Shown: positions 12,426-39,602 of the stretch, piece after piece
Layout: each line of letters begins with the position of its first letter
How positions within the stretch are numbered: the first letter of the stretch is position 1
Source: Rhodobacterales bacterium
GTDB lineage: Bacteria > Pseudomonadota > Alphaproteobacteria > Rhodobacterales > Rhodobacteraceae
NCBI GenBank assembly: GCA_002747325.1
Contig: PDOZ01000032.1
Location: forward strand, 6,962-70,961
Direction: 5' to 3'
DNA length: 64,000 nucleotides
Notes under the pieces: model-generated
The model's input: only the letters and a program-made list of their open reading frames with translations
Database searches by the model: none
What the model was told of the DNA's origin: nothing
Position numbers and translations under genes: made by a program

Positions 12426-13952
12426 TCAGGCTTCCCCCGCCTCAAGGCTTAGCGGTGCCGGTTTCGCCCGCAAATCCGCGGTGCTCAACTCCTCCTGCGG
12501 CCGCGACAGCGCATAGCGCGTGACCCAATGCAAGCGCTGTTCGGCCCGCGTGATCGCGACATAGGCAAGGCGTTTCCAAAGCGGCAGCCCGGCCTCCATC
12601 CGCCCCATCCGCGCCGCCGCCCAGATGTCGGGGGCAAAGACCTGAACGTCCGGCCACTGGCTGCCCTGCGCCTTATGGATCGTAACCGCCGCGCCGTGCA
12701 GAAACGACGCACCCATGGTCGCAGCGAAGGGGATGAACGGCTCTTCCTCGTCGGGCCGCTCGATCTTCACGATTGAGGCGACCGAGATCTGCGGATCCTC
12801 TGCGCCGAAAATATGCACCCGCGAAAAACCGGGCCGCCGCCCCTCGCCGAGAAACACCCCCTGCGCACCTTTGATCAGCCCCTTGGCCTCCAGCTCAATG
12901 CGTCGCTTGCGGTGTTTGAGCGGCAATTCGATCCCGTCGCACAGAAGCGGCTCACCGGGCAAAAGCGCCTCTTCCGGCGCGCCATGCGCCGCGCGAAAGG
13001 CATGGATCAAACGAATGCGGGTCTTGTTGCGCCAGACCAGAACCGGGCTGCGCGCCATCATATCCGCATTGACCCGCGGGGCGAGAATAACCCGGTCGTC
13101 GCGCGCCGCCGCCTCGCGAACCATCGCCTCGAAGCCTTCAAAGGTCAGGCGTTCATCGGCCAGCGCATGGGCCAGATCAAGGATCGGATTGTCGGTTTCC
13201 TGCCGATGCACCCGGTGCAATTCGCATTTTCGTCCCGCCTCGAACCCGTCAAACACCATTTCGCCGGACTGGCCCACCGGAGCAAGCTGCGCGGGATCGC
13301 CGAACAGCACCAGCGTAGGGAAAATCTCCTGCAAATCCTCGAACTGGCTCTTGTCGAGCATGGAACTTTCATCGACGAAACCAATGTCGAGCGGGTCGTC
13401 GCGGCGCTTCCATCCGGTAATGAAATCCGAACCGCGCAACCCCGCCGCCGCCAGCGCGCCCGGCACGGATTTTTGCGCCTGATAGAAAGCATAGGCCCGG
13501 TCCAGCGCCTCTTCCGTCATGCCCTCGACCTCGGGGCGTTCGCCCTTGCCGGCGAGCCACTCGGCGATGGCCTCAAATTCCGGCGCGTAGACCGGGGTGT
13601 AGAGGATGCGATGGATCGTGGTGGCGGGAACGCCGCGGGCGCGCAGAACCGAAGCGGCCTTGTTGGTCGGGGCCAGCACGGCGAGCGAGCGGCTTTCGCG
13701 CTTGCGGCGGCTTTCATAATCGCCGGTGACGATCTCCGCCCCGGCTTCCTCGACCGCGCGGGTCATCTCCGCCAACAGCAAGGTCTTGCCCGACCCCGCC
13801 TTGCCCACAACCGCCATCGCGCCGCTGTCGCGGCTGGGCTGCGGCAGGCACAGACCATCCTCCAGCGAAATACCACTGGCCTTTAACAGATCGGAAACCC
13901 GATCCCAGGCCTCCGCCTGATCCTCTGAAAGTTCGAAACGCTCCACACCCAT
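12426..13952 (-). CDS. RecD/PIF1-like superfamily-1 DNA helicase (AAA_30 plus UvrD_C_2 type)
   Basis: Walker A VVGKAGSGKTLL, Walker B FVDESSMLD, and the C-terminal TIHKAQGSQW...YVAITRA helicase motifs. Confidence 0.85.
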   Translation of the reverse strand: MGVERFELSEDQAEAWDRVSDLLKASGISLEDGLCLPQPSRDSGAMAVVGKAGSGKTLLLAEMTRAVEEAGAEIVTGDYESRRKRESRSLAVLAPTNKAASVLRARGVPATTIHRILYTPVYAPEFEAIAEWLAGKGERPEVEGMTEEALDRAYAFYQAQKSVPGALAAAGLRGSDFITGWKRRDDPLDIGFVDESSMLDKSQFEDLQEIFPTLVLFGDPAQLAPVGQSGEMVFDGFEAGRKCELHRVHRQETDNPILDLAHALADERLTFEGFEAMVREAAARDDRVILAPRVNADMMARSPVLVWRNKTRIRLIHAFRAAHGAPEEALLPGEPLLCDGIELPLKHRKRRIELEAKGLIKGAQGVFLGEGRRPGFSRVHIFGAEDPQISVASIVKIERPDEEEPFIPFAATMGASFLHGAAVTIHKAQGSQWPDVQVFAPDIWAAARMGRMEAGLPLWKRLAYVAITRAEQRLHWVTRYALSRPQEELSTADLRAKPAPLSLEAGEA

Positions 13953-13993: not shown

Positions 13994-14641
13994 TCAGGCG
14001 GTTTTTGCCAGCCCCGGCGCGGCGTTTCCGGCCAGCGAGAGGGAATAGTTCAGCCACGACTTGCTCACCTCGCGCGTCACGCCGACCCGCTCCAGCGTCG
14101 GCTCAAACGCCTCCTCGTGCATCCGCCACAACCCGGCGCCAATCCGGTCCTTGCCCTCGCCGGCATAGCCCAGCACTTCCGGCTCCAGCCCCATCAAACG
14201 GTAAATCCGCTGCATACGCGCGTCGAACACGCCAACGAAATATTTCAGCCCAAACGCCTCCATCAATTCCCCCGCGCCCAGCGCAAGCGCGGCAGAAACC
14301 CGGCGGTCCGCATTGGGCGAGAGGCAAAACCGGGTGCATTCCCAGATGAACGGGCTTTCGATTCGCTCGCCGCCATTGAGGAAGGCGAAATGGTCATTAA
14401 CCATGGTGTCGCCGGTGGTCGGCAAGAACCGCATAGAGCCGCCATGCCGCCCGTCCGGCATTTCCCAAATGACATAAAGCGGGTTCAGATCGTCATATTC
14501 GTCGCGCTCTTCCCCATGTTCATTAACCTTAACGTCCTCCCATTTCAGGCGGCGAACAAACTGATCCGCCCGATCCAGAAACATGGTTTTGGACAACAGG
14601 GGAAAATGCTTGAGATCGTTTGCGTAAATGTAGCGCAGCAT
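13994..14641 (-). CDS. luxI: Acyl-homoserine-lactone synthase (LuxI family)
   Basis: MLRYIYANDL...FLDRADQFVRRLKWE...DEYDDLNPLYVIW...GGSMRFLPTTG...FIWECTRFCL are LuxI-family signatures. Start set at ATG 14641 with AAGGAG upstream. Confidence 0.9.
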   Translation of the reverse strand: MLRYIYANDLKHFPLLSKTMFLDRADQFVRRLKWEDVKVNEHGEERDEYDDLNPLYVIWEMPDGRHGGSMRFLPTTGDTMVNDHFAFLNGGERIESPFIWECTRFCLSPNADRRVSAALALGAGELMEAFGLKYFVGVFDARMQRIYRLMGLEPEVLGYAGEGKDRIGAGLWRMHEEAFEPTLERVGVTREVSKSWLNYSLSLAGNAAPGLAKTA

Positions 14642-14718
14642 GGGGGACTCCTTCTTCGATTCACGGTTCAATACAACCCAAAATGGTTAACTCTTTGCTA
14701 ACAAGAGCGAGAAGAATC

Positions 14719-14784: not shown

Positions 14785-15498
14785 TCAAACGATAACCGCG
14801 CCTGTAGAAAGCGCGCGGGCAACGGCATGAGTGGTGTTCATGGCACCAAGTTTATGGCGGGCGCTTTCGATATACACCCTAAGCGTGTGCTCGGAAATCG
14901 CCAGCGTCTGCGCCGCCTGCGACCGGCTCATACCCTGCGCAAGACAACGCATGGCATCAAGTTCGCGCGGCGAAAGGTTCGGCTGCAAAATCGGCCCCTC
15001 AAACTCTTCGAACAGCAACGCTTTCTTGTTGAATTCATGCGCCAGAAGCACCAGTTCATGTCCATTTTTGTCGATAAACGCCGCCCAATCCGCATCCTCC
15101 GCCGTGTCATTCAACGTGAACACCGCGAATTGTCCGTTGGGGCCGCGCACCGGAACGGAATAGCCCTGATTACCAACCCCATGCGCCAGCGCATCACGCC
15201 ACATTTCCTGCGCCGCTTTCGACGACCAATCCAGCTCTTTCCACGACACCGGGGTAAAGCGCTGGAAACACCCGAAAATCACCGGGTCCATACGCAGGTA
15301 ATCCATCTCCAGATAGCGATCGACCCAATCGCCCGAATAGGTGCCCGCGCCGAAGCGCTCCCCGTTGGAATTTACCCAATGATAGACCACATGCGACACG
15401 CCATAATAATCGCGGGTGCGCTCGGTCGCGCTTTGAAACGCCTCAAGCGTGTCAGCGCGCTGCAAAAAGCTGAGTAACGTTTCCAGTTTGTCTTTCAT
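14785..15498 (-). CDS. luxR: LuxR family transcriptional regulator (autoinducer-binding domain plus C-terminal HTH)
   Basis: 237-aa ORF with an N-terminal autoinducer-binding-type region (YLRMDPVI, GYSVPVRGPNGQFAVF) and the C-terminal LSPRELDAMRCLAQGMSRSQAAQTLAISEHTLRVYIESARHKLG HTH. It sits directly upstream of luxI. Confidence 0.9.
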   Translation of the reverse strand: MKDKLETLLSFLQRADTLEAFQSATERTRDYYGVSHVVYHWVNSNGERFGAGTYSGDWVDRYLEMDYLRMDPVIFGCFQRFTPVSWKELDWSSKAAQEMWRDALAHGVGNQGYSVPVRGPNGQFAVFTLNDTAEDADWAAFIDKNGHELVLLAHEFNKKALLFEEFEGPILQPNLSPRELDAMRCLAQGMSRSQAAQTLAISEHTLRVYIESARHKLGAMNTTHAVARALSTGAVIV

Positions 15499-20954: not shown

Positions 20955-21482
20955 TTATTCGAAGACGTCGACCAGTTCGAAATAGGTATAGCTCTGGGCG
21001 ATATGACCCATGTCGCCCTTGATGAACCGGGGGTCTTTCGGCAGGCAGCCGATGCCGCAGATCTGACTCAGCACCATGTCTTCGGTATCAATATACCACA
21101 GCCGCCCGCCCGGCGTCGCGACCCAGCCGTCGATCCCCTCGGCCTCGTCGCCCTCAATATCATCCACTGAAGGCACCTCGTTGTAATAGCTCGTCGAGAA
21201 CGCGCCGTGGGTGTGATAGGAGGCCGTAATCACCTCGATATTGGTCGGATCGTCGGACATGCAGCTATCCTTGTCACCGCGCGTCGGCTCGGAAGCGACC
21301 AGCTTCCCCGCCTTGTCAAAACCAATATAGCCGCAATACTCGACCCCATCGCGAATTGACGTCGGATTAAGTTGGGCAAAAAGCTGCTTAACCAACTGGA
21401 TTTCATTGGTCGCTTGCGCCAAGACTACGTTAGGAAACGCACAAAGGGCGATGAGCCCGAGGGTGGTTTTGCAAAAGAGCAT
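20955..21482 (-). CDS. Secreted DUF4329-like protein
   Basis: Only the last 175 aa of ORF 20955..22046 are credible: signal peptide [23 protein letters not shown], then [22 protein letters not shown]...[11 protein letters not shown]. The upstream part of the ORF is antisense to deoD. Confidence 0.7.
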
Positions 21483-21527
21483 ATGAATCTCCACTGTGAG
21501 GCTGCCCATGAAATAGGGAGGAAAGCC

Positions 21528-22235
21528 ATGACTGTCCATATCGGAGCCAAACCGGGCCAGATTGCCGAAACCGTATTGATGCCGGGCGACCCGTATCGCG
21601 CGAAGTGGATCGCAGAGACCTTCATTGAAAATGCAGAACTGGTCAACGAAGTGCGCGGGATGCTGGGCTATACCGGCACCTGGAAAGGCAACCGCGTCAC
21701 TGTTCATGGCTCCGGCATGGGCATGCCCTCCTTCTCGATCTACGCCAACGAGCTGATCCGCGATTACGGCGCCAAAACCCTGATCCGCATCGGTTCTGCC
21801 GGAGCGATGCAGGAGAAGGTCAAGGTGCGCGACGTGGTGCTGGCCATGACCGCCTCGACCCTCTCGACCCCCTCGCGTGGCATTTTCCGCGAGTTGAACT
21901 TCGCGCCCTGCGCCGATTACGGCCTGCTCAAAGCGGCGCATGACGCGGCACTGGCGAAAAAGCTCGCGCCCCATGTCGGCGGCATTTACTCCTCGGATGT
22001 GTTCTACGACGAGCGCCCCGACCTCACCGAACAGATGACCCGCCACGGCGTGCTGGCGGTCGAGATGGAAGCCGCCGAGCTATACAACCTCGCCGCCCGC
22101 TACGGCGTGCGCGCGCTGGCGGTGCTGACCATTTCCGACCACCTGCTGACCGGCGAAGCGCTGCCCTCCGATCAGCGCGAGCGCAGCTTCGGCGACATGG
22201 TGGAAATCGCTCTGGAGGCCGCGTTCAGCGTGTGA
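21528..22235 (+). CDS. deoD: Purine-nucleoside phosphorylase, DeoD type
   Basis: [32 protein letters not shown]...[15 protein letters not shown]...[12 protein letters not shown] 21528 is preceded by GGGAGG. Confidence 0.9.
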
Positions 22236-27225: not shown

Positions 27226-28230
27226 GTGCAGACCGAAACAAAGACGAGCCAGACGGAGAGCCGCAGCGCCGGGTTGCCGCAGACGCTGGCCCCGCGCAAT
27301 CCAGGGATGGCACTGGATATGGATTGGGTCATGAGCGCGGCTGCCAACACCTCCGCCATCGAGCGCCGCGCCGCCAGCATCGGCGCGCGTCGTTCGGTCA
27401 AGGGGCCGTATCAGGCCGCGTGGCTGGCCAAGGCCATTACGCTGATCGACCTGACCACCCTGTCGGGCGATGACACGCCGGGCCGGGTGCGCCGCCTTTG
27501 CGCCAAGGCCCGCCATCCGCTGCGCGCCGATCTGGCGGAGGCGATCGGGCTGGACGGGCTGACCACCGGCGCGGTCTGCGTCTATCACGACATGGTGCCC
27601 ACCGCCGCCGCCGCGCTCGCGGGGTCCGGGGTTCCGGTCGCCGCCGTATCGACCGGCTTTCCCGCCGGGCTGTCGCCCTTTTCCCTGCGCGTGGCCGAGA
27701 TCGGCGAGAGCGTGCGGGCCGGGGCGGATGAGATCGACATCGTGATTTCGCGCCGCCATGTGCTGACCGGCAACTGGCAGGCGCTTTATGACGAGATGAA
27801 AACCTTCCGCGAAGCCTGCGGCCCGGCGCATGTTAAAGCCATTCTGGCCACCGGCGAACTGGGGTCGCTGCGCAATGTCGCCCGCGCCTCGCTGATCTGC
27901 ATGATGGCGGGGGCGGATTTCATCAAGACCTCCACCGGCAAGGAAAGCGTCAACGCCACCCTGCCGGTCTCCCTGACCATGATGCGCGCCATCCGCGACT
28001 ATCACGAACGCACCGGGCAGATGGTCGGCTACAAGCCCGCCGGCGGCATTTCCAAGGCCAAAGACGCGCTGACCTATCTCGCGCTGCTGAAAGAAGAGCT
28101 GGGCGATGCCTGGCTCTCGCCGCACTATTTCCGCTTCGGCGCCTCGTCACTTCTGGGCGATATCGAGCGGCAAATCGAGCATTTCGTCACCGGCCACTAT
28201 TCCGCCGCCCACCGGCACGCACTGGGGTAA
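27226..28230 (+). CDS. deoC: Deoxyribose-phosphate aldolase (long form)
   Basis: LIDLTTLSGDDT...EIDIVISR...ADFIKTSTGK (Schiff-base Lys context)...GYKPAGGI. I prefer the GTG 27226 start, 5 nt after GGAGG, over the ORF-track ATG 27079. Confidence 0.86.
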   Translation: MQTETKTSQTESRSAGLPQTLAPRNPGMALDMDWVMSAAANTSAIERRAASIGARRSVKGPYQAAWLAKAITLIDLTTLSGDDTPGRVRRLCAKARHPLRADLAEAIGLDGLTTGAVCVYHDMVPTAAAALAGSGVPVAAVSTGFPAGLSPFSLRVAEIGESVRAGADEIDIVISRRHVLTGNWQALYDEMKTFREACGPAHVKAILATGELGSLRNVARASLICMMAGADFIKTSTGKESVNATLPVSLTMMRAIRDYHERTGQMVGYKPAGGISKAKDALTYLALLKEELGDAWLSPHYFRFGASSLLGDIERQIEHFVTGHYSAAHRHALG

Positions 28231-28234
28231 AGAC

Positions 28235-30601
28235 ATGAACATCAAGGATATTTTCGAAAACATGGACTACGGCACCGCCCCCGAAAGCGCCAGCGAGGCC
28301 CGCGACTGGATTGCGGCGAAAGGCCCGTTTGGCCACTTCATCGGCGGCGCAATGACCGCCCCCGCCGCGACCTTCGCCACGCGCAACCCCGCCACCGGCG
28401 AAGAGCTGGCGCAGATCTCGCAGGGCAGCGCCAAGGATATCGACCGCGCGGTGAAAGCCGCCCGGCGCGCGCAGAAGGGTTGGGCCGCGTTGTCCGGTCA
28501 TGCCCGCGCCCGGTTCCTCTATGCCATCGCCCGGCTGGTGCAAAAACACGCCCGGCTGTTCGCGGTGCTGGAAAGTCTGGACAATGGAAAGCCGATCCGC
28601 GAGGCGCGCGATGTCGATATCCCGCTGGTAGCGCGGCATTTTTATTACCACGCGGGCATGGCGCAGCTATCGGACAGCGAGCTTCAGGGCCGCGAACCGC
28701 TCGGCGTTGCCGGGCAGATCATCCCGTGGAATTTCCCGCTGCTGATGCTGGCGTGGAAGGTCGCGCCCGCCATTGCGATGGGCAACACGGTGGTGCTGAA
28801 ACCGGCGGAGTTTACCTCCCTGACCGCCCTGCTTTTCGCGCAGATCTGCACCGAGGCCGGGCTGCCCGCAGGCGTGGTCAACATCGTCACCGGCGACGGC
28901 GAAACCGGCGCGGCGCTGACCGCGCATGAGGGCATCGACAAGATCGCCTTCACCGGCTCGACCGAGGTTGGCCGCCTCATCCGCCGCGCCACCGCCGGGC
29001 GGGGCGTTTCCCTGACCCTCGAACTGGGTGGCAAGTCGCCCTACATCGTGTTCGACGACGCCGATCTCGACAGTGCGGTTGAGGGGCTGGTCGATGCGAT
29101 CTGGTTCAATCAGGGGCAGGTCTGCTGCGCCGGCTCGCGGCTTTTGGTGCAGGAAGGCATCGAAACGCGGTTTCTCGACAAGCTGAAGGCGCGGATGGCG
29201 AAGTTGCGCGTGGGTGATCCGCTGGACAAGTCGGTGGATGTGGGTGCGGTGGTCGATCCGAGCCAGCTCGAGACCATCACCCGCATGGTGGCGGAAGGCG
29301 GCGCGGAGGGCGAGGTGTATCAAGCCCCCGGCGCCCTGCCCGAAACGGGCTGTTTTTACCCCCCGACCCTGATCACCGGGCTCGGTTCCTCCGCCCGGCT
29401 GATGCAGGAAGAAATCTTCGGCCCGGTGCTGGTTGCCATGTCGTTTCGCACCCCGGCGGAGGCGGTGGCGCTGGCCAATAACAGCCGCTACGGGCTGGCC
29501 GCCACGGTCTGGTCGGAAAACATCAACCTCGCGCTGGACATCGCGCCGAAACTGGCGGCGGGCGTGGTCTGGATCAACGGCACCAATATGTTCGACGCCG
29601 CCGCGGGCTTTGGCGGCGTGCGCGAAAGCGGCTTTGGGCGCGAAGGTGGCTGGGAGGGGCTGGAGGCCTATACCAAGCCGCGCGCCAAGGGGCGCAAAAA
29701 CCCGGCCATCGCGCCGGTTGCGCCCGCCAAAGCGCCCGATGCGCCAGACCTCGACCGCACCGCTAAGCTCTTCATCGGCGGCAAGCAAACCCGCCCCGAT
29801 GGGGGCTATTCGCAGCCGGTTTATGCCCCCAAAGGCGCGCTCATCGGCCATATGGGCATCGCCGGGCGCAAGGATCTGCGCAACGCGGTGGAAGCGGCGC
29901 GCAAGGCCAGCGGCTGGTCCGCCGCCACCGCCCATCTGCGGGCGCAAATCCTGTTCTACATCGCGGAAAACCTCTCCGCCCGCGCTGGGGAATTTGCCAC
30001 GCGCATAGATCAGATGACGGGCAAGAAGGGCGGCGCGGAGGAAGTTGAACGCGCCATCGACCGGCTGTTCAGCTACGGCGCCTGGGCCGACAAGCTCGAC
30101 GGCGCGGCCAAGCCGGTGCCCCTGCGCGGGGTGGCGCTGGCGATGCACGAGCCGGTCGGCGTTATCGGCGCGCTGGCCCCAGATGAATTGCCGCTGTTGG
30201 GGCTGGTCTCGCTGATCGCGCCGGCCATCGCCATGGGCAACCGCATGGTGATCGGCGCTTCGCAGCCCTACCCCCTCGCCGCCACCGATTTCTATCAGGT
30301 GTTGGAAACGTCTGACCTGCCGGGCGGCGTAGTGAATATCCTGACCGGCCCGCATGAGGGGTTCGCCAAGGCGATGGCGGGGCATCTCGATGTGGACGCG
30401 GTGTGGAACTTCTCGTCCGCCGGGCTGGACACCATGATCGAGACCGAAAGCGCGGGCAACCTGAAGCGGGTCTGGGGCGGCGCCATGCCGGACTGGATGA
30501 CCCCGGAGGGCGAGGGCCGCGCCATTCTTGCGCAGGCGACGGAGATCAAGACGACGTGGATCCCCTATGGCGAGGGGATGTGGAACGGGTCTTCGTATTA
30601 G
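28235..30601 (+). CDS. Aldehyde dehydrogenase fused to a second, truncated ALDH-like module (788 aa)
   Basis: The first 480 aa form a complete ALDH (WNFPLLM, ELGGKSP, QGQVCCAGSR). After a Pro/Ala linker, residues from about 511 repeat an ALDH NAD-binding-type half (LFIGGKQ...ALAPDELPLLG...VWNFSSAG) without a catalytic Cys. Start at ATG 28235, 4 nt after the deoC stop. Confidence 0.86.
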   Translation: MNIKDIFENMDYGTAPESASEARDWIAAKGPFGHFIGGAMTAPAATFATRNPATGEELAQISQGSAKDIDRAVKAARRAQKGWAALSGHARARFLYAIARLVQKHARLFAVLESLDNGKPIREARDVDIPLVARHFYYHAGMAQLSDSELQGREPLGVAGQIIPWNFPLLMLAWKVAPAIAMGNTVVLKPAEFTSLTALLFAQICTEAGLPAGVVNIVTGDGETGAALTAHEGIDKIAFTGSTEVGRLIRRATAGRGVSLTLELGGKSPYIVFDDADLDSAVEGLVDAIWFNQGQVCCAGSRLLVQEGIETRFLDKLKARMAKLRVGDPLDKSVDVGAVVDPSQLETITRMVAEGGAEGEVYQAPGALPETGCFYPPTLITGLGSSARLMQEEIFGPVLVAMSFRTPAEAVALANNSRYGLAATVWSENINLALDIAPKLAAGVVWINGTNMFDAAAGFGGVRESGFGREGGWEGLEAYTKPRAKGRKNPAIAPVAPAKAPDAPDLDRTAKLFIGGKQTRPDGGYSQPVYAPKGALIGHMGIAGRKDLRNAVEAARKASGWSAATAHLRAQILFYIAENLSARAGEFATRIDQMTGKKGGAEEVERAIDRLFSYGAWADKLDGAAKPVPLRGVALAMHEPVGVIGALAPDELPLLGLVSLIAPAIAMGNRMVIGASQPYPLAATDFYQVLETSDLPGGVVNILTGPHEGFAKAMAGHLDVDAVWNFSSAGLDTMIETESAGNLKRVWGGAMPDWMTPEGEGRAILAQATEIKTTWIPYGEGMWNGSSY

Positions 30602-32112: not shown

Positions 32113-32143
32113 TCTTTGAAATCGCGCTAACGTGGCCCATATC
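32113..32143 (+). promoter_or_regulatory. Sigma-32 (RpoH)-like promoter motif TCTTTGAA-N14-GCCCATATC
   Basis: It has the same architecture as the motif upstream of hsp20 in this window (CCCTTGAA-N14-CCCTAGATA) and resembles the classical CCCTTGAA-N13-15-CCCCATNTA consensus. It ends 31 nt before ATG 32175. Confidence 0.35.
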
Positions 32144-32174
32144 ATGTTACACGGCTTTACTTTGAGGGGGAAAA

Positions 32175-33254
32175 ATGGCGCAGACGTTCGAACAGCAAAT
32201 CGAGGCCAGCCAGAAGCAGGTCGCCGACGCGCAGGCAAAAATCGCGGAACTGACCACGCGTATTGAAACCACGCGCGCCAAGCTGGATTCCGGCGAGGAT
32301 GTGACCATCGACATCGAAAACGCCACCCTTGAGGACGTCGACGCCCATACCAAGGTGATGAACGCCAATATCGCCGAACTGATCATGGGGCTGGACGACG
32401 TAACCGCCGGATTTTCCAAAGATTTTGACGAGATACGCAACAAGACGGCGTGGGAAAGCTTCGTCGGCATTTTCTCCAAAGGCAAGTCGGAAAGCCTGCG
32501 TCAGGAACGGATGCGCACCGCGTCGATTGACGACAAATTGCAGGATCTGATCGGCAAATCCGACGTGATCGTAAACCTGTTGCAGGGCCAGCTTGCGATG
32601 CTGGAGCAGCAGAAAACCAAGGTGGAAGAAAACCTGAGCCTGACGCTGGACGACCGGGAAATGACCGTCGCGGAGCTGGAAAGCCTGCGCGCTGAGATCA
32701 AGGCGATGGACCCGCAGATCATCGAGCTGGAAAACCGCATCGCCTCGACGACGGACGCCGCCGAGCGCACCAAGCTGGAGACCGAACTGGCGGAAATCAA
32801 CGGTCGGTTCAACGAATTGGTGCAGCAGGAACAGGTCAAACTTGCGCGTTCGCAGACGCTGGAACGCTATATCGAGAAGGGCAAGACCTGGGTCGACAGC
32901 CTGCAAAATCAGGCGGCAACGCAGATGGTGCTGATCAACAAGCTGGAAACCGACACCAAGCAGCGGGTCGTGCTGTATGACGCCCTGTTGAAGTCGCTCA
33001 AAACCGCGCAGCAACAGGACATCGCGCACCGGATCAACGAGATCGGCGTCGAGACCGACAAGGAAGCGCAGGCGGCAATGGCGGCGATCGGCACCGCGAC
33101 CAATCAGAAGATGGCCGACATGATGGAAGCGCATGAGGAACACATGGTCTTCGCCCGCGACGTGCTGGAAGCCAAGGCGCGTGCCGACGAACGCTTCGCC
33201 CGCCGCTTCGCCGAGATCGTAGAGAAGCACGACAAGAATCTCTATGGGGCGTAA
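32175..33254 (+). CDS. Long coiled-coil protein, TelA (toxic anion resistance)/PspA-like
   Basis: 359 aa, rich in E/K/Q/L/A with long heptad-like stretches (LEQQKTKVEENLSL..., ELESLRAEIKAM..., ELAEINGRFNELVQQEQVKLARSQTLERYIEKGK). The segment FVGIFSKGKSESLRQERMRTASIDDKLQDLIGKSDVIVNLL recalls the TelA N-terminal core. No TM helix or signal peptide. The family call is tentative. Confidence 0.55.
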   Translation: MAQTFEQQIEASQKQVADAQAKIAELTTRIETTRAKLDSGEDVTIDIENATLEDVDAHTKVMNANIAELIMGLDDVTAGFSKDFDEIRNKTAWESFVGIFSKGKSESLRQERMRTASIDDKLQDLIGKSDVIVNLLQGQLAMLEQQKTKVEENLSLTLDDREMTVAELESLRAEIKAMDPQIIELENRIASTTDAAERTKLETELAEINGRFNELVQQEQVKLARSQTLERYIEKGKTWVDSLQNQAATQMVLINKLETDTKQRVVLYDALLKSLKTAQQQDIAHRINEIGVETDKEAQAAMAAIGTATNQKMADMMEAHEEHMVFARDVLEAKARADERFARRFAEIVEKHDKNLYGA

Positions 33255-33289
33255 CAGGAGCCGGTGGATGAACGGGAAGGAACAGCCCC

Positions 33290-34432
33290 ATGCCCGCCGG
33301 TGAGACCCGCCCGGAAAGCACGAAGGGTGCGCACCTGAGCGAGTCATCCGTTTCCCGGCGCTACTTCGCCAAATTCGCGGCGATCACGGACCATCTGGGC
33401 CGGGTGGCGGCGATGATGGAAGCGGAGGGGGCGTTCAGCCGCGAGGAGGTGGAAATCCTCGCGCGCTATATCCTTGCGCTGCGCTTCACCTTCCGCGCTC
33501 TGGGTTACAAATACCATATGTCCGGCCTGGCGGAAAACAGCGGGCGCATCGCCATTGACCGCACCGACAGCGGCTTTCCGGTCCATGCCGAACTGTTGCA
33601 AATGGCGGCGGATGCGGCGCAGGCGAGCAAGCACCTGAAACACAGCAAACCGCCCGCGGAGTTGAAAGCGGAGATGGTGCGGCGCATCGTCGGCGATCTC
33701 GAACACCCGACGCGGCTGCAATACGCCCTCTCGCAGCGGCTCTATTACGAGGAAATCGCCCGTGGCGATCTGTTCTGGCCGCAAATGGACCCGGACGCGC
33801 TGTGGCTTGGCAACGAGGAACGCGCGGGCACCTTGCGGCGGCGCTATCTCGTGCATTGGGCCGTCTATGACAGCGGACTGAACGTGCCGACCATTTATCT
33901 GATGGAGGTCGAGGATACGGGCAAAATCGCCCTGCCGCGCGACGAAAACCGCTGGCCGGAAGTGCAGACGCATCTGATGGCGCAGGCGGTGGCGGGGCTG
34001 AAACTTGTCACCATCGCCTCCGGGTTTGACAAGGATTTCGACCACTTACACCCCAAGACCCTGCGCCGCATCCATATCGGCCCGATGTATAGCCACAGCT
34101 ACACGCAGCAAAGCGGCCCGATCCGCGACGTGTTAGACAAAGCGCGCGCGCCGGAAGGGGAGGATTGGGCGCTGGCCTGGACGGTCGAGGCGCTGGAAAG
34201 CGCGTCGGTAACGCTGGAAAAATCCGGCTGGTTCAGCTCGGTTGAGCGCGAGATTTTCGCCATTGATCCACTGTCGGCGCAGAGCGTCGAGACCGGGGCG
34301 ACCCGCATCGAACGCGCCCTGATCCTGCCGCAGCGCCCGTATCAGGTTCTGGCGGAACAAGACCCGCCGGGTTTTCGGGGCTTGCGTAAATTCGTTGTCA
34401 GCCCGTCCGGCCGCGTCCTTTCTTATCGTTGA
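33290..34432 (+). CDS. Hypothetical protein (380 aa), no recognisable domain
   Basis: Good coding look (GC3-rich, GGAAGGA upstream of the ATG) and an operon position between the coiled-coil and AAA genes. I recognise no motifs. Confidence 0.7.
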   Translation: MPAGETRPESTKGAHLSESSVSRRYFAKFAAITDHLGRVAAMMEAEGAFSREEVEILARYILALRFTFRALGYKYHMSGLAENSGRIAIDRTDSGFPVHAELLQMAADAAQASKHLKHSKPPAELKAEMVRRIVGDLEHPTRLQYALSQRLYYEEIARGDLFWPQMDPDALWLGNEERAGTLRRRYLVHWAVYDSGLNVPTIYLMEVEDTGKIALPRDENRWPEVQTHLMAQAVAGLKLVTIASGFDKDFDHLHPKTLRRIHIGPMYSHSYTQQSGPIRDVLDKARAPEGEDWALAWTVEALESASVTLEKSGWFSSVEREIFAIDPLSAQSVETGATRIERALILPQRPYQVLAEQDPPGFRGLRKFVVSPSGRVLSYR

Positions 34433-34447
34433 ATTTCAGGGGGTTAT

Positions 34448-36391
34448 ATGTCCACACCGGGAAATCTGATCGAACTGCGCGAAGAGAAAATCCGCGCGCA
34501 TTACGGCACGGCGGAAGGCATGCTCGACGGGTTCGACCACACGCCACGCCTCGCCAAACCGCGCGTGGAAGAAGCAGGCGCGCCGCGCGAACGCTCCCCC
34601 GGCATCCCCCGCGCCCGCCGCTTTCGCTCCACCACCCCCGGCCTCGTCACCCGTAGCACCGCCCGCCCCGAGGGGGTGCATCTCGGCGCGCGCATCGAGG
34701 CCGCCGACGCGGACGATCCCCTGATTTCCCCCGCGCAGGCCAGCGCGCTTTTTGCCCTGCGCCGCGCTTTGGCCATCGCGCTGGCCATCGCGGAGAATTA
34801 CGCCGAGCAAACCGGGCTGGAAGAGTTGAAAAAGCAAAATCTGGGCCACGCCCTGCCCGACAGCGCGCGCGCCAAATTCACCGAGCTTCTGACCGCCGAA
34901 GCCCTGATCGGCCTCGCCGCTTTCGCCAATGCCGCCGGGTTCCTGACCGCACCGCTGGCGGGGGAAACCAACGTCGAGATCGGCGCCATCGAAGAGGTGC
35001 TGACCGACAACCTTCCCCTCGCCTTGCACGGCGCGCTGTGGGAACTGGATCAGGTGTTGGCGACCCATGCCAACAGCCCCGAAACCTGCCTCGCCAGCAT
35101 CGCCGCGTTCAGCGAACAACTGATGGAAAAGGTCGCCCTGCGCGCGGGCAATACCCCCCGGCTCGATGCCTTCACCGCCTCCTCCATCCGCATCGAGGCG
35201 GACGACCTGACCATCGCCGGCTTTGCCCCCTCCCGCAAAGCGCGCGGCACCGCCCTGACCATGCAATTCAAGGCGCCGCATGAGGTCGTGGGCAACCATA
35301 TCGCCAAGTATCAGGCGATGAAGCTGGCCAAGATGCTGATGGCCTATGATTTCGAGCGCAAGCTCAACCCCTTCGCCGAAATGGGCGGCTTCATCTTCAC
35401 CTTCATGGGCGACGGCGCGCCGGGCACCGGCAAGACCACCCTGATCCAGATGATGGCCGGGCTGATCCACGGCTATTGCGAAAACGCGGGCTACCCCTTC
35501 CGCTACCAGAACTTCGGCATCGACAATATCGACAGCTATCAGGGCAAATCCGGCCAGAACGCAAAAGCCTTTATCAACAACGTGTTAGACCCCAATGTCA
35601 TCGGCTTTGGCACGGTGGACGACATCGACCAGATCGCGGGCAAACGTGGCGACCGGCAAAGCTCGGCGGGGCAACAGGAGGTCACGGCGGTGCTGATGGA
35701 AGCCTTCGCCGGGGCCAATACCGTCGTGCGTGGCAACGCCACGTTTGGCATGTTTTCCAACTACCCGGAGAATGTCGACGACGCGCTGCGCCAACGCGCC
35801 GGGGCACGCTTCCTTGTCGACGGCCCGCAAACCCGCGACGATTATATCGACATTTTAGCCCTCCTGATGGGCAAAAACCACGACATCCCGCTGGGCGATC
35901 ACGCGCTGTACGCCGCGCAACAGATCGAAAAGGCGGTGGCGCAGAGTTTCGAAAGCCACGCCCGCCCGAAAGAAGCCGCCCTGCTCAAGGTTTACGATCA
36001 GGTTTCCGGCGAACTCGGCCCCCTCGACACCCTCGCCAAACTCGGCACCTACCTGAAACGCATTCAGGAAGTCGACCACCGCTTCACCGGCCGTGCCATC
36101 AAGAACATCACCGACGCGATCAAGGTCCGCGCGATGGATTTTGAACTGCCGGACGAGTGGATGGAAGACCCCGACCGCTTCCTGTTCAAACCGTATGACG
36201 AGAAAAAAGGCATGATCGGAGAGTTGCGCCGCAAAATCACGCTGGACATGGTGCTACAGGAAATCAACCGCTACGCCGACAGCGAATTCCGCTACGCCAA
36301 CAAATCCGACGAAGCCGCCATCGCCAAAATGGTGCGCGACTTCGGCCTGACAGAAGAGGCCAAGCGGCGGTATCTGGAGGGGAAAGGGTGA
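34448..36391 (+). CDS. Classic-clade AAA+ ATPase with about 310-aa unknown N-terminal region and about 170-aa C-terminal extension
   Basis: Walker A GAPGTGKT (nt 35414-35437), Walker B FGTVDDID (VDDID at nt 35615-35629), and a sensor-1/second-region-of-homology-like FSNYPENVDDALRQRAGARF. AGGGGG Shine-Dalgarno upstream. Confidence 0.85.
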   Translation: MSTPGNLIELREEKIRAHYGTAEGMLDGFDHTPRLAKPRVEEAGAPRERSPGIPRARRFRSTTPGLVTRSTARPEGVHLGARIEAADADDPLISPAQASALFALRRALAIALAIAENYAEQTGLEELKKQNLGHALPDSARAKFTELLTAEALIGLAAFANAAGFLTAPLAGETNVEIGAIEEVLTDNLPLALHGALWELDQVLATHANSPETCLASIAAFSEQLMEKVALRAGNTPRLDAFTASSIRIEADDLTIAGFAPSRKARGTALTMQFKAPHEVVGNHIAKYQAMKLAKMLMAYDFERKLNPFAEMGGFIFTFMGDGAPGTGKTTLIQMMAGLIHGYCENAGYPFRYQNFGIDNIDSYQGKSGQNAKAFINNVLDPNVIGFGTVDDIDQIAGKRGDRQSSAGQQEVTAVLMEAFAGANTVVRGNATFGMFSNYPENVDDALRQRAGARFLVDGPQTRDDYIDILALLMGKNHDIPLGDHALYAAQQIEKAVAQSFESHARPKEAALLKVYDQVSGELGPLDTLAKLGTYLKRIQEVDHRFTGRAIKNITDAIKVRAMDFELPDEWMEDPDRFLFKPYDEKKGMIGELRRKITLDMVLQEINRYADSEFRYANKSDEAAIAKMVRDFGLTEEAKRRYLEGKG

Positions 36392-37296
36392 TGGAAAGAC
36401 GATTTGTTATTAAACCGGAAGGATCTCCCGATTTTCCCGGGATGATGTTTGTAACATTAAAAGCACTCAAAAAACTCGGTGGGTCTGCAAGAAACCAAGA
36501 GTTAGATGAAGCAGTCGTAGAACTCGAAGGTGTGTCCGAAGAAGAGCAATCATTTATGATGTCCGGCAAGAACAGCAGCCAGCCGCGACTGAACTATTAT
36601 CTGGCATGGGCAAGAACTTATCTAAAAAAGGCCGACCTAATCGAAAACTCCCAACGTGCCGTTTGGTCGCTTACAGATAGGGGAAAAGAACATCAAAGTC
36701 TTAAAAAACTGACCAACTTATATGACAGCACCGAAAAGGAGCGCTCGAAAAAACGACGTGCCGCCCAACAAAGTCAATCCGACCCGACGCAAAACGATCA
36801 GCCTTTCGATGCACCGGATGAGGAAGCGGCGACCGATGAAAACTGGCGTGAAAAGCTTCTTAGCGTATTGCGCGCAATGGATCCCAGCGCATTTGAACGC
36901 CTGAGCCAGAAACTTCTGCGCGAAGCTGGCTTTATCAAGGTGGAAGTGCGCGGAAAGAGTGGGGATGGCGGCATTGACGGTGTTGGTGTTTTGCGGATGA
37001 ACCTCGTGTCCTTTCAGGTGTTTTTCCAATGCAAACGCTATAAGGGCAGCGTCAGTTCCGGGGAAATTCGCGACTTTCGCGGTGCCATGATTGGCCGCGC
37101 GGACAAGGGGTTATTCATCACTACGGGAACCTTCACCGCTCAGGCTCGGAGCGAAGCCACGCGCGACGGTGCATCCACCATCGATCTGATCGACGGCGAA
37201 GCATTCTGCGATTTGCTCAAGGCAAATAACTTGGGCGTGGCAACAGAAATGATTGAGCGTGTCTCAATTAATGAAGCTTGGTTTGGAGCGGTTTGA
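36391..37296 (+). CDS. mrr: Mrr-family restriction endonuclease (Mrr_N winged helix plus PD-(D/E)xK Mrr_cat)
   Basis: N-terminus FPGMMFVTLKALKKLGGSARNQELDEAV...RLNYYLAWARTYLKKADLIEN...WSLTDRG (Mrr_N) and catalytic region GDGGIDGVGV...FQVFFQCKRYKG (D...QxK). The ATG overlaps the AAA stop by 1 nt (TGATG). GC is visibly lower than in the neighbours. Confidence 0.85.
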   Translation: MERRFVIKPEGSPDFPGMMFVTLKALKKLGGSARNQELDEAVVELEGVSEEEQSFMMSGKNSSQPRLNYYLAWARTYLKKADLIENSQRAVWSLTDRGKEHQSLKKLTNLYDSTEKERSKKRRAAQQSQSDPTQNDQPFDAPDEEAATDENWREKLLSVLRAMDPSAFERLSQKLLREAGFIKVEVRGKSGDGGIDGVGVLRMNLVSFQVFFQCKRYKGSVSSGEIRDFRGAMIGRADKGLFITTGTFTAQARSEATRDGASTIDLIDGEAFCDLLKANNLGVATEMIERVSINEAWFGAV

Positions 37297-37297
37297 C

Positions 37298-38638
37298 ATG
37301 AAACGTCTAATCGAACGCGGGCTGATGTTTGGCAACCTGATCCGGGTGGACAGTCCGGCTTTGGTGGGGCGCTATAACCGGGCGTTGGAGAAGCTCACCG
37401 GCAAGCGCACCGGGTTGCAGGCCTTTCATATCGACATTTCCGGCTACTCTTACGAGATGGGCGAGGAATTGGGGGATCATCTTTATCTCAACCCCAACGG
37501 CGTCAACCGGATGTTCATCCTGCTCACCACCGAACAGAAGCGCGCGCCTTTGCTCAACGCGCAATTCTCCACTTCGCGCGGAATTTTGCGCCAGTTCATT
37601 GAGGAAAACGAAGCCAAGCTGTTTGCCCTGACCGCGCATGACGCTGTAGCCGGGGAGTTGGACAATTCGGTATTTCGGGCCGACAGCCCGGCGCGACTGT
37701 TTGACATTCGTCGCATCACGATCGAGGCGGATACCACGCAGTCGCATGTCGAGAACGCCCGCAAGCTGGCGGAGAAGATCGAGACCTTTACCAGCGCCGA
37801 AAATGCGTGGTTCGATGAAGCACTGATCGACGAAATGATTGCGTTGGCGCGCGAAACCGGCGACGTAACGCGCCACCCGATCGACCTCGCACGGCCCACC
37901 TATGAGCAGGGCAATTTCTGGACCGCGCATTTTGGCGGCATTTATGTTTTCCGCGATGTGGACCGCCCCGCCGCGATTACCGTGCGCGACAAGGCATCGC
38001 TGTCGCCCATGCCGATTGACACGCTCGACCTGAGCGAGCGCAACGCCATCGCTGCCTTTCTCGACCGCAACGACCTCGTGGAACCGATCATCAAGGCGCG
38101 CGGCGTCGATGGGGCGGCGATCCTGCGGCAAAAGATGGATTTCATCCTTGTCGATGCGGCGACGCGGGCGGGGCTGGACATTCCCGGTTTCGACAGCCGC
38201 TCGCTGCACCGCTTGGCCACCCGCATGGGCCGCGCCCTGCCCGAAAGCTTCATCCAGCTGAACGCCCTCGTGCGTTGGGCGCTTAACGGGGGCAAATGGC
38301 CGCGCATCACCTCCAAAAGCCCGGCCTATTTCTACACCCTGCGCGCCCGCGCCGATCACCCGGACCGCGATCTGATTAACCAGCTTCTCACTGAGCTGTC
38401 CCCCGCCGACATCCGGCAACTCTTCATCACCCACAAACAAGCCTTCTACCGCGCCTATGCCAGCTGGCCCGAGCGCAAGAAAAGCTATGTTGCCGATTTC
38501 CTGCACCATGATTACATGGCAAACAAGGCAGGCGCGCGCGAGGCGCTGTTCGGCGGCAAACCAACCCCGCCGGAACGCGATCTGGTCGACCTCGTTGGCC
38601 CGTGGGGTGCCTTCAAACGCCGCGACCGCGACAGATAG
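37298..38638 (+). CDS. Hypothetical protein (446 aa), no recognisable domain
   Basis: ATG 37298 lies 1 nt after the mrr stop, and the high-GC codon usage matches the flanking genes. I recognise no catalytic motifs. Confidence 0.7.
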   Translation: MKRLIERGLMFGNLIRVDSPALVGRYNRALEKLTGKRTGLQAFHIDISGYSYEMGEELGDHLYLNPNGVNRMFILLTTEQKRAPLLNAQFSTSRGILRQFIEENEAKLFALTAHDAVAGELDNSVFRADSPARLFDIRRITIEADTTQSHVENARKLAEKIETFTSAENAWFDEALIDEMIALARETGDVTRHPIDLARPTYEQGNFWTAHFGGIYVFRDVDRPAAITVRDKASLSPMPIDTLDLSERNAIAAFLDRNDLVEPIIKARGVDGAAILRQKMDFILVDAATRAGLDIPGFDSRSLHRLATRMGRALPESFIQLNALVRWALNGGKWPRITSKSPAYFYTLRARADHPDRDLINQLLTELSPADIRQLFITHKQAFYRAYASWPERKKSYVADFLHHDYMANKAGAREALFGGKPTPPERDLVDLVGPWGAFKRRDRDR

Positions 38639-38646
38639 GAGCAAAC

Positions 38647-38913
38647 ATGCATTTCGTCAGACTGATTATCTTCGGCGGCCTTGCCCTGTCGGTAGTGTTC
38701 TTCGCCGCCTCGTGGTTTTTCCGCTCGACCCGCCGCGAGGCGCTGGAAAAGGAATGGGACGCCGACCACCCCGACGGGGACGAGGCGGATCGGGACGCCT
38801 TCGTCGAGGCAGGCATCGCCGAATATAACGCCGGCATCGTGCCCAAGCTCCTCTGGCTGATCTACATCCTCCCCGGCCTGTTCATCCTTTACACCCTGAT
38901 CACAACCAACTGA
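38647..38913 (+). CDS. Small membrane protein (88 aa, two predicted TM helices)
   Basis: MHFVRLIIFGGLALSVVFFAASWFF...acidic loop...LLWLIYILPGLFILYTLI. AGGAG lies 6 nt upstream and the start is 8 nt after the previous stop. Confidence 0.65.
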   Translation: MHFVRLIIFGGLALSVVFFAASWFFRSTRREALEKEWDADHPDGDEADRDAFVEAGIAEYNAGIVPKLLWLIYILPGLFILYTLITTN

Positions 38914-38921
38914 GACCCGCC

Positions 38922-39602
38922 ATGCGCATCTTTCGCAACACCTTACTCACCGTCTTCGCCCTGCTGGCATTCGGCTTTTTTCATTATGTGCTGCCGCAAC
39001 ACGACGTGGCCCGCATCACCGGCACCGAGATCATCCGCATGGATTTCTCCGGCTGGAACCGCATCTTCTTCGCCCGTTCTGACAGCGGCAACAGCGAGCT
39101 GACCACCCGCGACATCCGCCTCGTCAATGCGGTGAAGAAAAAGACCTGGATCTGGGGCTTTTTCCAGCGCGACAGCGAAGAGGTAATGGTTTACCGCAAC
39201 GAGGACACCGGCTGGATCTGGCCGCCCTATTTCAAGTTCGACAGTTCCGATTTGCAGGCACAGGCACTGGCCAACCTGTCCACGCCGGAGAAAGAACAAT
39301 GGGTCGTCATTACCCATTACGGCTGGCGCAACCGCTTCTTCACCATCTACCCGAACGTGGTCGGTATCCGTCCGGTCGATGGGCCGGATGTGCGGGTAAT
39401 CCCTTGGTTCAACATCATTTTCTTCGTGTCCCTCGCCTTTGTCCTCCTGTTCATCCGGGCGCTCTGGATACAATTTCGCGAGCGCAAGATCGACCCGGCG
39501 CTGGAGGATACCCGCGACGCATGGGAGAAGGTCGATGCCTATGCGGACGAAAAACGCGGGCGGTTTTCGCGCTGGCTCGATACGTGGCGCAGCAAGAAGT
39601 GA
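38922..39602 (+). CDS. DUF1523-like membrane-anchored protein
   Basis: 226 aa with an N-terminal TM helix (LLTVFALLAFGFFHYVL), an aromatic-rich middle (WIWGFFQRD, WIWPPYFKFD) and a C-terminal TM helix. The family name is recalled and was not searched. Confidence 0.65.
   Translation: MRIFRNTLLTVFALLAFGFFHYVLPQHDVARITGTEIIRMDFSGWNRIFFARSDSGNSELTTRDIRLVNAVKKKTWIWGFFQRDSEEVMVYRNEDTGWIWPPYFKFDSSDLQAQALANLSTPEKEQWVVITHYGWRNRFFTIYPNVVGIRPVDGPDVRVIPWFNIIFFVSLAFVLLFIRALWIQFRERKIDPALEDTRDAWEKVDAYADEKRGRFSRWLDTWRSKK

Follow-up and report, generated by a model that had tools for sequence, protein, structure and literature searches.

A conserved AAA+ ATPase operon of Rhodobacterales with a hypervariable internal slot and an Mrr-type passenger

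Organisation of the locus

A block of seven genes, designated G1 to G7, lies in a 64,000-nucleotide (nt) stretch of contig PDOZ01000032.1 from a Rhodobacterales bacterium; this whole stretch is referred to as the window. The locus is best explained as a vertically inherited six-gene operon with one foreign passenger, the nuclease gene G4. The invariant unit is G1-G2-AAA-DUF6638 (G1, G2, G3 and G5), which occurs in Rhodobacterales, in Hyphomicrobiales (Mesorhizobium, Sinorhizobium), on Vibrio megaplasmids and in Pseudoalteromonas. The junction between the AAA+ and DUF6638 genes, in which the passenger sits, is a hypervariable slot within the operon. The features of the locus are listed below, with protein lengths in amino acids (aa).

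32116-32143, + strand: promoter-like element TTGAAA-N14-CCCATATC, from a sequence scan upstream of G1
32175-33254, + strand: G1, 359 aa, soluble all-helical coiled-coil protein of an orphan family
33290-34432, + strand: G2, 380 aa, soluble orphan protein
34448-36391, + strand: G3, 647 aa, divergent classic-clade AAA+ ATPase (PF00004)
36391-37296, + strand: G4, 301 aa, Mrr-type (type IV) restriction endonuclease, with an alternative GTG start at 36388
37298-38638, + strand: G5, 446 aa, DUF6638 (PF20343), soluble, fourth member of the core
38647-38913, + strand: G6, 88 aa, two hydrophobic segments and an acidic loop
38922-39602, + strand: G7, 226 aa, DUF1523 (PF07509) membrane protein

A preliminary description of this DNA had reported seven + strand open reading frames (ORFs) with minimal spacing. 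Its coordinates and gaps were reproduced exactly: from the ORF listing and translation, the successive distances from G1 to G7 are 35, 15, -1, 1, 8 and 8 nt. Purine-rich Shine-Dalgarno-like runs precede most of the start codons. The flanks are unrelated to the block, with an M20 peptidase gene upstream on the opposite strand and an SBP_bac_5 ATP-binding cassette (ABC) transporter operon downstream.

Scans of all seven proteins against Pfam, NCBIfam, PADLOC and PHROGs identified only the AAA, Mrr, DUF6638 and DUF1523 families. In PADLOC-DB v2 the Mrr protein provided the sole real match of the locus; G2, G5, G6 and G7 had none, G1 gave only coiled-coil noise (JetC, LmuB), and G3 gave weak matches to TRIP13 and IetA at E >= 7e-4. 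The view that the gene set lies outside the named systems was upheld, since neither Pfam, NCBIfam, PADLOC, PHROGs, the PDB nor the literature provided a placement for it.

Conservation of the block in Rhodobacterales

A relative of G3 is encoded in at least 587 species genomes (587 of 600 candidate stretches, one genome being taken per species). The best 80 loci, which formed the comparison set, come almost entirely from Rhodobacterales genera, among them Maritimibacter, Aliiroseovarius, Phaeobacter, Leisingera, Shimia, Ruegeria, Marivita, Yoonia, Amylibacter, Tabrizicola and Paenirhodobacter; a small number carry the labels Hyphomonadaceae, Litorimonas or Halomonas. A tblastn comparison with the window proteins recovered the order G1-G2-G3-slot-G5-G6-G7 wherever the contig was long enough. 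Identity to the window proteins across these loci is highest for G1 (69-82%), followed by 70-77% for G3, 51-69% for G2, 50-76% for G5 and 38-76% for G7, with G6 evolving fast (29-60%).

The M20 peptidase and SBP flanks of the window are found again in several genera, which argues for vertical descent of the block. Other genera have different flanks, so that the block is moved or maintained as a whole. The preliminary description had taken the seven genes to form a single operon; co-conservation was found for six of the seven, and the set did not resolve into housekeeping families.

A full Rhodobacterales-type block is also present in a nominal gammaproteobacterium, the genome labelled Halomonas ventosae NRS2HaP1 (CP022737.1; G3 72% and G1 71% identical), in which the slot is essentially empty (11 nt). 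This suggests mislabelling, contamination or recent transfer.

A four-gene core in distant taxa

An exhaustive search with G1 yielded just 315 representatives at 50% clustering, with identity down to 25-30%; the named distant members belong to Mesorhizobium, Pseudoalteromonas and alphaproteobacterial metagenome-assembled genomes. The four-gene core is kept where G1 identity is only 30-47%, in the following arrangements.

L083, contig matching the Mesorhizobium G1 cluster (metagenome): G1-G2-(Fic)-AAA-DUF6638-DUF2333-66 aa-ParE-like
L085, contig carrying the Pseudoalteromonas sp. OFAV1 G1: ligase, then G1-G2-AAA-DUF6638, near TerB/TerD/PRTase/StiP genes
L087, L089 and L090, two metagenome contigs and a 0.88-Mb V. 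parahaemolyticus replicon: RNase H ... G1-G2-AAA-DUF6638-mfd
L088, deep-branching relative: G1-G2-AAA-DUF6638-75 aa (two-transmembrane)-DUF1523
L091, S. meliloti Ak57, CP090106.1: tdk, then G1-G2-AAA-(endonuclease + ISRm16)-DUF6638-DUF2333-fhs

The flanks common to Mesorhizobium and Sinorhizobium are a choline/OpuAC-type ABC transporter upstream and fhs downstream. The membrane partner that follows the core is a small two-transmembrane (2-TM) protein with DUF1523 in Rhodobacterales and in L088, and a 2-TM DUF2333 protein in rhizobia; membrane partners are thus recurrent but swappable.

That there is no functional unit here, and that the genes share chance adjacency or a transcript only, is scarcely credible. 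Gene order and spacing are indeed the sole links between the genes, and G6/G7 are swapped for DUF2333 or absent in other lineages. However, adjacency and order of the core are maintained at 30-80% G1 identity, across two proteobacterial classes and within several unrelated flanks.

The Vibrio-type locus L090 belongs to the 882-kb V. parahaemolyticus replicon NZ_CP062152.1, in which the core lies between an RNase H family gene and an mfd copy. L087 and L089 share this backbone, in which a conserved ~280-aa protein is encoded upstream of G1, and tblastn found the DUF6638 gene on replicons of ~0.9 Mb annotated as plasmids in both V. parahaemolyticus and V. vulnificus. In L085/L086 (1-15774) the core lies immediately downstream of a gene of the NAD-dependent ligase type and within ~9 kb of a Ter-type cluster comprising TerB, TerD, PRTase_2/TRSP and StiP/PELOTA_1; L088 has a LigA-type gene ~8 kb upstream of its core. 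These ligase and Ter neighbours could reflect coincidence or a functional link. No DUF6638 was found in phage records or in IMG/VR viral contigs, and a phage or mobile-element origin of the core was rejected on that basis.

A role in nucleic-acid transactions or replicon maintenance would explain such neighbours as well as the tolerance of nuclease insertions, and in addition to mfd directly downstream in three loci, with the RNase H family gene upstream, it could draw on the LigA-type ligase directly upstream in Pseudoalteromonas (and at a distance in L088), on the PIF1 helicase and topoisomerase near the L088 core and on the thymidine kinase gene upstream in S. meliloti. It is nonetheless improbable. 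The three loci with mfd and RNase H have Vibrio-type replicon backbones that are related to one another and amount to one observation, the core proteins contain no DNA-binding or nuclease domain recognisable by Pfam or NCBIfam, and in Rhodobacterales the surrounding genes are metabolic (M20 peptidase, ABC transporters, lipid genes).

The AAA+ ATPase

G3 matches PF00004 at E 1.3e-10, above the gathering score, and has a single ATPase domain at approximately residues 300-560. In an alignment of 10 sequences, down to 45% identity, the invariant motifs are Walker A GDGxPGTGKT (K329), the pore loop DS[YF]QG, Walker B GFGT[IV]DDID, sensor-1 N438, R448/R450/R454 and the lid FTGRAIKN; the AAA motifs reported in the preliminary description are present, and its numbering of the Walker A lysine (K329) is correct. 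The N-terminal 250 residues are poorly conserved, with no N-terminal domain, MIT included, detected by Pfam, and the C-terminal extension is conserved. With Walker A and B, pore loop, sensor 1, the arginines of the second region of homology (SRH) and the lid all found, the sequence identifies G3 as a bona fide, very divergent classic-clade AAA+ protein that looks competent.

The relatives of G3 in the PDB are weak (E 1e-3 to 0.3) and show no subfamily preference, being spread over VAT/Cdc48, Yme1, Rpt, Pex6, katanin, Vps4, Msp1 and EccA1. The match to Vps4, at E ~0.03, is poorer than those to VAT, Yme1, Rpt and Pex6. Placement of G3 in the Vps4/meiotic clade was considered and rejected: Pfam finds no MIT domain, and Cdc48, Rpt, Yme1 and katanin are at least as close to the protein as Vps4 is. 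The Vps4-type reading put forward earlier for this gene did not hold for the same lack of preference among classic-clade subfamilies.

The coiled-coil protein

The AlphaFold2 (AF2) model of G1 is all-helical, with a mean predicted local distance difference test (pLDDT) score of 71 and a long hairpin formed by helices 119-191 and 195-285. In residues 217-300 conservation extends over essentially all helix faces. Searches of Pfam with G1 gave coiled-coil noise only, and both G1 and its family profile matched only generic coiled coils among PDB sequences, nothing specific. Foldseek with the model, whose pLDDT is only 71, gave no match at E <= 1e-3; the weak matches were to ClyA-type toxins, SMC/Rad50 arms and chemoreceptor hairpins. 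As a candidate, a ClyA-family alpha-pore-forming toxin was rejected, with fold matches at E 2e-3 to 5e-2, template modelling scores of 0.2-0.48 and no hydrophobic segment in G1.

The preliminary description had labelled G1 TelA/PspA-like and had proposed, by analogy with PspA/ESCRT-III and Vps4, a polymer-forming coiled coil that is taken apart by a classic AAA+ enzyme. In its strict form, this would make G1 a true member of the PspA/IM30/ESCRT-III (or TelA) group and G3 its Vps4-type disassemblase. The logic is similar, in that a helical hairpin protein is encoded with a classic AAA+ protein and small membrane proteins behind a promoter of stress-type appearance; by eye, the order of conserved blocks in G1 may also recall TelA. 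The comparisons point the other way, however. PF04012, PF03357 and PF05816 are absent for G1 and from the families listed for 41 diverse members of its family (E <= 1; for PF05816 the check covered the 25 most frequent Pfam families listed for those members). An hhalign comparison of the G1 family profile with E. coli PspA, whose sequence was validated against 4WHE and Vipp1 entries, gave a probability of 0.7%. No PspA, Vipp1 or CHMP/ESCRT-III structure is among the top 50 Foldseek matches of the G1 model, though the PDB holds many, and on the side of G3 there is no Pfam MIT domain and a Vps4 match (E 0.03) no better than those to VAT, Rpt or Yme1. Such kinship is therefore very improbable: homology is disfavoured by the direct Pfam and hhalign comparisons, and the TelA/PspA-like label could not be verified, with no PspA, Snf7 or TelA signal in Pfam.

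G2, DUF6638 and the membrane proteins

G2 carries the conserved motifs SGFP, LQxALSQRLYY, HWAxYD and LHPK..RR..GP. Earlier inspection had recognised no motif in it, and searches of Pfam, NCBIfam, PADLOC, PHROG and the PDB were likewise empty. G5, in which no motif had been recognised either, proved to be a full-length DUF6638 protein (PF20343, E 2e-224, profile positions 1-439 of 439). Its AF2 model has a pLDDT of 70, rising above 85 in the C-terminal half; G5 has no sequence match in the PDB, and Foldseek found no fold match in the PDB or BFVD for this confident half. A comparison of G2 with G5 as possible paralogues detected no relationship.

G6 and G7 each contain two hydrophobic segments, in agreement with the two small membrane proteins described previously. 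G6 has no Pfam match and carries an acidic loop; in L088 its position is taken by a 75-aa 2-TM counterpart. G7 matches DUF1523 (PF07509) at E 1.9e-61 over profile positions 1-176 of 176; an N-terminal TM segment is followed by a conserved domain of ~130 aa (YRNEDTGW.WPPYFKFD, HYGWRN), a second TM segment and a basic C-terminal tail. It has no PDB relative. DUF6638 and DUF1523 are both uncharacterised families: a literature search gave no papers on DUF6638, and incidental mentions only of DUF1523 and DUF2333.

The Mrr passenger and the variable slot

The identification of G4 as an Mrr nuclease was confirmed. It combines a winged-helix Mrr_N domain (PF14338, E 3e-19) with a PD-(D/E)xK Mrr_cat domain (PF04471, E 1.5e-30), as in type IV Mrr enzymes, matches the PADLOC models mREase_IV/PDC-S02 at E 7e-28 to 1e-29, and has an intact catalytic motif, GDGGIDG...FFQCKRY. 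The GC (guanine plus cytosine) content of the gene is 0.50 and that of its third codon positions (GC3) 0.51, against a GC3 of 0.77-0.83 in its neighbours. Among 73 loci (the window and the 72 comparison loci that hold both G3 and G5), Mrr is present in two, the window and a Pseudoruegeria locus with 61% identity, the latter being alone among all 80 comparison loci in having an Mrr homologue. It is best read, from its composition and distribution, as an independent type IV restriction gene that landed inside the operon: horizontally acquired cargo and not a core component. The earlier suggestion that the ATPase controls a nuclease effector does not describe the ancestral logic, since the nuclease is compositionally foreign and found in 2/73 loci.

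The slot, measured from the G3 stop to the G5 start, spans 5 to 4324 nt (median 760 nt); the other junctions vary less (21-1109 nt between G1 and G2, 12-1599 nt between G2 and G3). The preliminary description had asked whether the position between the AAA+ and 446-aa genes is empty or differently filled elsewhere, and in other genomes it is. In three Rhodobacterales loci the slot is at most 82 nt long and has no called gene, and in the distant cores the AAA-DUF6638 junction measures only 70-240 nt.

Slot genes lie nearly all on the operon strand, many of them beginning at the G3 stop codon, and in the loci checked the last one ends at the G5 start. Most have a lower GC content than the core (0.40-0.57 vs 0.54-0.67), although a few slots, for example in L024, L041 and L044, are at or above core GC. 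Their products are mainly proteins of ~100-170 aa with 2-4 TM segments or proteins of 250-345 aa, and belong to a few very divergent families, of which family A has no Pfam match. Only a handful of the larger proteins (n=44) match Pfam or PADLOC, and ~90% have no recognisable domain. The families matched, each by one protein only, are Mrr, AbiJ_NTD4, HNH, DUF2971, a TRADD-N-associated 2-TM domain, an alpha/beta hydrolase, a thioredoxin-like domain, HATPase_c_2 and PDC-S31. Between genomes in which G3 is 95-97% identical, slot proteins share only 27-39% identity, and no genome pair compared had a slot protein more alike than the core. Evolution or turnover of the slot genes is far more rapid than that of the core.

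In L091 (7060-8805) the slot holds a gene for a 134-aa 'endonuclease domain-containing protein' together with an ISRm16 transposase gene, and in L083 a Fic gene lies between G2 and the AAA+ gene, with a ParE-like gene after DUF2333. The junctions are therefore insertion-prone outside Rhodobacterales too, and in rhizobia they likewise attract selfish or defence genes.

These observations bear on the main rival to the function proposed below, that the locus is a defence platform. The core would then detect infection or govern activation, and the slot genes (small TM proteins, Mrr, HNH, an AbiJ-like protein, a hydrolase) would be interchangeable abortive-infection effectors, the AAA+ core licensing Mrr in the present case. 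Several slot domains are of the conflict type (Mrr, HNH, AbiJ_NTD4, DUF2971, the TRADD-N-associated 2-TM domain and PDC-S31), to which the Fic and ParE-like genes of the Mesorhizobium-type locus and the endonuclease of the S. meliloti slot may be added. CBASS and Lamassu usually draw their alternative effectors from a similar mix of TM proteins, nucleases and hydrolases. Co-orientation of the slot genes, many with starts at the G3 stop codon, hyper-divergence of their products between near-identical cores, and a patchy spread outside Alphaproteobacteria (on Vibrio megaplasmids, and beside a Ter cluster in Pseudoalteromonas) would also fit.

Such a platform is nevertheless unlikely. Compared with the usual defence system, the core is better conserved (~70-80% identity across genera), has a wider distribution and keeps its synteny more strictly; no core gene matches a PADLOC model, and no copies were found in phage records or viral contigs. 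The gene-less slots of the three Rhodobacterales loci and the 70-240 nt junctions of distant cores indicate that the core functions without a slot gene, which is taken to be absent ancestrally. A slot may hold up to eight ORFs, and three junctions accept insertions, a pattern that is island-like and does not resemble a single effector position; ~90% of the large slot proteins, moreover, are without a recognisable domain. It is likewise doubtful that the core is an AAA+-driven control platform of a new kind, fixed in the core genome of Rhodobacterales and rhizobia, that gates toxic or defensive modules (small membrane proteins, Mrr, HNH, AbiJ-like and Fic proteins) swapped as cassettes at defined slots within the operon, and so a chromosomal, vertically inherited effector socket serving anti-phage or anti-MGE functions.

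The upstream element

In relatives of the window locus a conserved element, GATGTAAAT-N5-TAACAT-xCCCCATAT, lies ~30-40 nt before the G1 start. A relaxed -35/-10 pattern is found in 37/78 upstream regions, against 0.8% of shuffles, and an inverted repeat that overlaps the element, ATGTAA-N-TTACAT, in 50% of upstream regions against 0.4% of shuffles. The conserved element is real.

Its assignment to a sigma factor is less direct. The -10 box CCCCATAT, conserved in about half of the relatives, is sigma-32-like, and the spacing agrees with that of the R. sphaeroides RpoH promoters listed in PMC3441632. The strict sigma-32 expression TTG-N16-19-CYATNT, however, matched only 5/78 upstream regions, which weakens the RpoH claim. 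The sigma-32-like promoter of the preliminary description accordingly stands in part: it fits the clade of the window (TTGAAA-N14-CCCATATC), and its -10 box is kept, but the -35 box of most relatives differs. For the window's own clade, assignment of the element to RpoH is plausible on its sequence.

In the RpoHI/RpoHII regulon of R. sphaeroides (PMC3441632 supplement), two neighbouring genes, RSP_0151 for a conserved hypothetical protein and RSP_0152 for an ATPase of the AAA family, have a predicted RpoH promoter. Their orthology to G2/G3 could not be established, and they may be a MoxR-type pair.

Proposed function

In the function proposed here, G3 acts at the inner membrane to remodel G1 assemblies, G2 and G5 are its co-factors, stress controls the system, and the slot genes are hitch-hikers. 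The G3 hexamer would thread or remodel a protein substrate by means of its conserved Tyr/Phe pore loop and arginine fingers, the likeliest client being the coiled-coil protein G1, whose conservation is extreme, in assembled form. G2 and DUF6638 may serve as adaptors or co-factors, and the tether to the inner membrane would be the pair G6/G7, acting through the basic tail of G7 on the cytoplasmic side. Transcription would start from the conserved promoter with its sigma-32-type -10 box, the slot genes riding on the same transcript, so that the operon would double as a landing pad for accessory and defence genes. As slot genes would ride on the operon transcript and, where checked, abut core genes, Mrr is taken to be an independent restriction enzyme rather than the effector of the system. 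The proposal is tentative: taken whole, it falls somewhat short of an even chance, and the choice of G1 as client is held less firmly than the rest.

Several observations weigh against it. Homology provides no link that would make G1 a client of G3, Foldseek gave only weak, generic long-helix matches for G1, and no biochemistry can be inferred for G2 and G5. Walker B of G3 reads DD and not DE, which may affect hydrolysis. A link to the membrane is not universal, as mfd, and no membrane protein, directly follows DUF6638 in the Vibrio-type loci. With regard to stress control, those same loci have near-consensus sigma-70 promoters, and the -35 box of most relatives, TGTAAA, lacks the TTG reported to be essential for R. 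sphaeroides RpoH (PMC3441632). Furthermore, a near-perfect 21-bp palindrome, GATGTAAA-N5-TTTACATC, overlaps the -35 box and spacer in many Rhodobacterales (L001, L014, L020, L025, L036 and others) and may be an operator for a dimeric regulator, as an alternative to an RpoH promoter; the copy in the window (32113-32147) is degenerate, TTGAAATCGCGCTAAC. Finally, co-oriented, abutting slot genes with rapid turnover are equally expected if these genes are functional modules of the system.

Relation to known systems

G3 resembles the classic AAA+ remodellers (Vps4/ESCRT-III, NSF/SNAP/SNARE, Cdc48 and EccA of type VII secretion) in its single PF00004 domain with Walker A, its aromatic pore loop, its SRH arginines and its classic lid, and as with remodellers that have dedicated partners its gene stands beside that of a long helical-hairpin protein and those of two candidate adaptors. 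It differs from the named remodellers in the weakness of its PDB relatives (E 1e-3 to 0.3), in its Walker B DD and in having no recognisable MIT, TPR or N-domain, and in no test run did its partner G1 prove to be a homologue of ESCRT-III, PspA or SNARE proteins. In the Psp/Lia envelope-stress modules, too, a stress-type operon encodes a soluble coiled-coil protein along with small membrane proteins, and an AAA+ protein is involved. In Psp that AAA+ protein is PspF, a sigma-54 activator and not a classic-clade enzyme; G1 fails the PspA sequence and profile tests, and G2 and DUF6638 have no Psp counterpart.

Defence islands or hot-spots and systems with modular effectors (CBASS, Lamassu) likewise present a precisely bounded, low-GC variable segment between conserved genes, filled with nucleases, small TM proteins and many orphans that turn over among close relatives. 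In contrast to the hot-spots, the slot is intra-operonic, its inserts are co-oriented, many starting at the AAA stop codon, and the flanking genes are an uncharacterised co-inherited module without a PADLOC match. G4 shares the full Mrr_N and Mrr_cat architecture and the intact D...QxK of Mrr type IV enzymes, but unlike stand-alone Mrr it is embedded in an unrelated operon, with a 1-nt overlap upstream and a 1-nt gap downstream. The familiar parts of the locus are the AAA+ domain and the passenger Mrr, and the core may represent another pairing of an AAA+ remodeller with its client.

Other features of the window

A low-GC patch at 14-16 kb of the window contains, on the - strand and in a segment with a GC content of 0.55, two quorum-sensing-type genes, one at 13994-14671 for a LuxI-type autoinducer synthase and one at 14785-15498 for a LuxR-type regulator; a gene for a RecD/TraA-like AAA_30/UvrD_C_2 helicase (12426-13952) adjoins the pair. 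The LuxI/LuxR segment may be another acquired segment. An 831-aa ORF at 28106-30601 (+ strand) has an aldehyde dehydrogenase domain in residues 88-525 only, with ~300 C-terminal residues left without assignment, and a 363-aa protein encoded at 20955-22046 (- strand) carries a C-terminal DUF4329 domain.

Significance

At least 587 species-level genomes of the marine Roseobacter/Paracoccaceae group, which is ecologically dominant, encode the module, as do model rhizobia (S. meliloti, Mesorhizobium). The constraint on it exceeds that on most of the proteome, and for three of the four core proteins no relative has a known function or structure. The slot offers a clean natural system for the exchange and expression of accessory and defence genes that hitch-hike on a conserved transcript, and a place to mine new small membrane effectors. 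Tractable hosts for the module exist in Phaeobacter inhibens, Ruegeria and S. meliloti, and solving its function would give roles to three orphan families and to a deep-branching lineage of classic AAA+ proteins.

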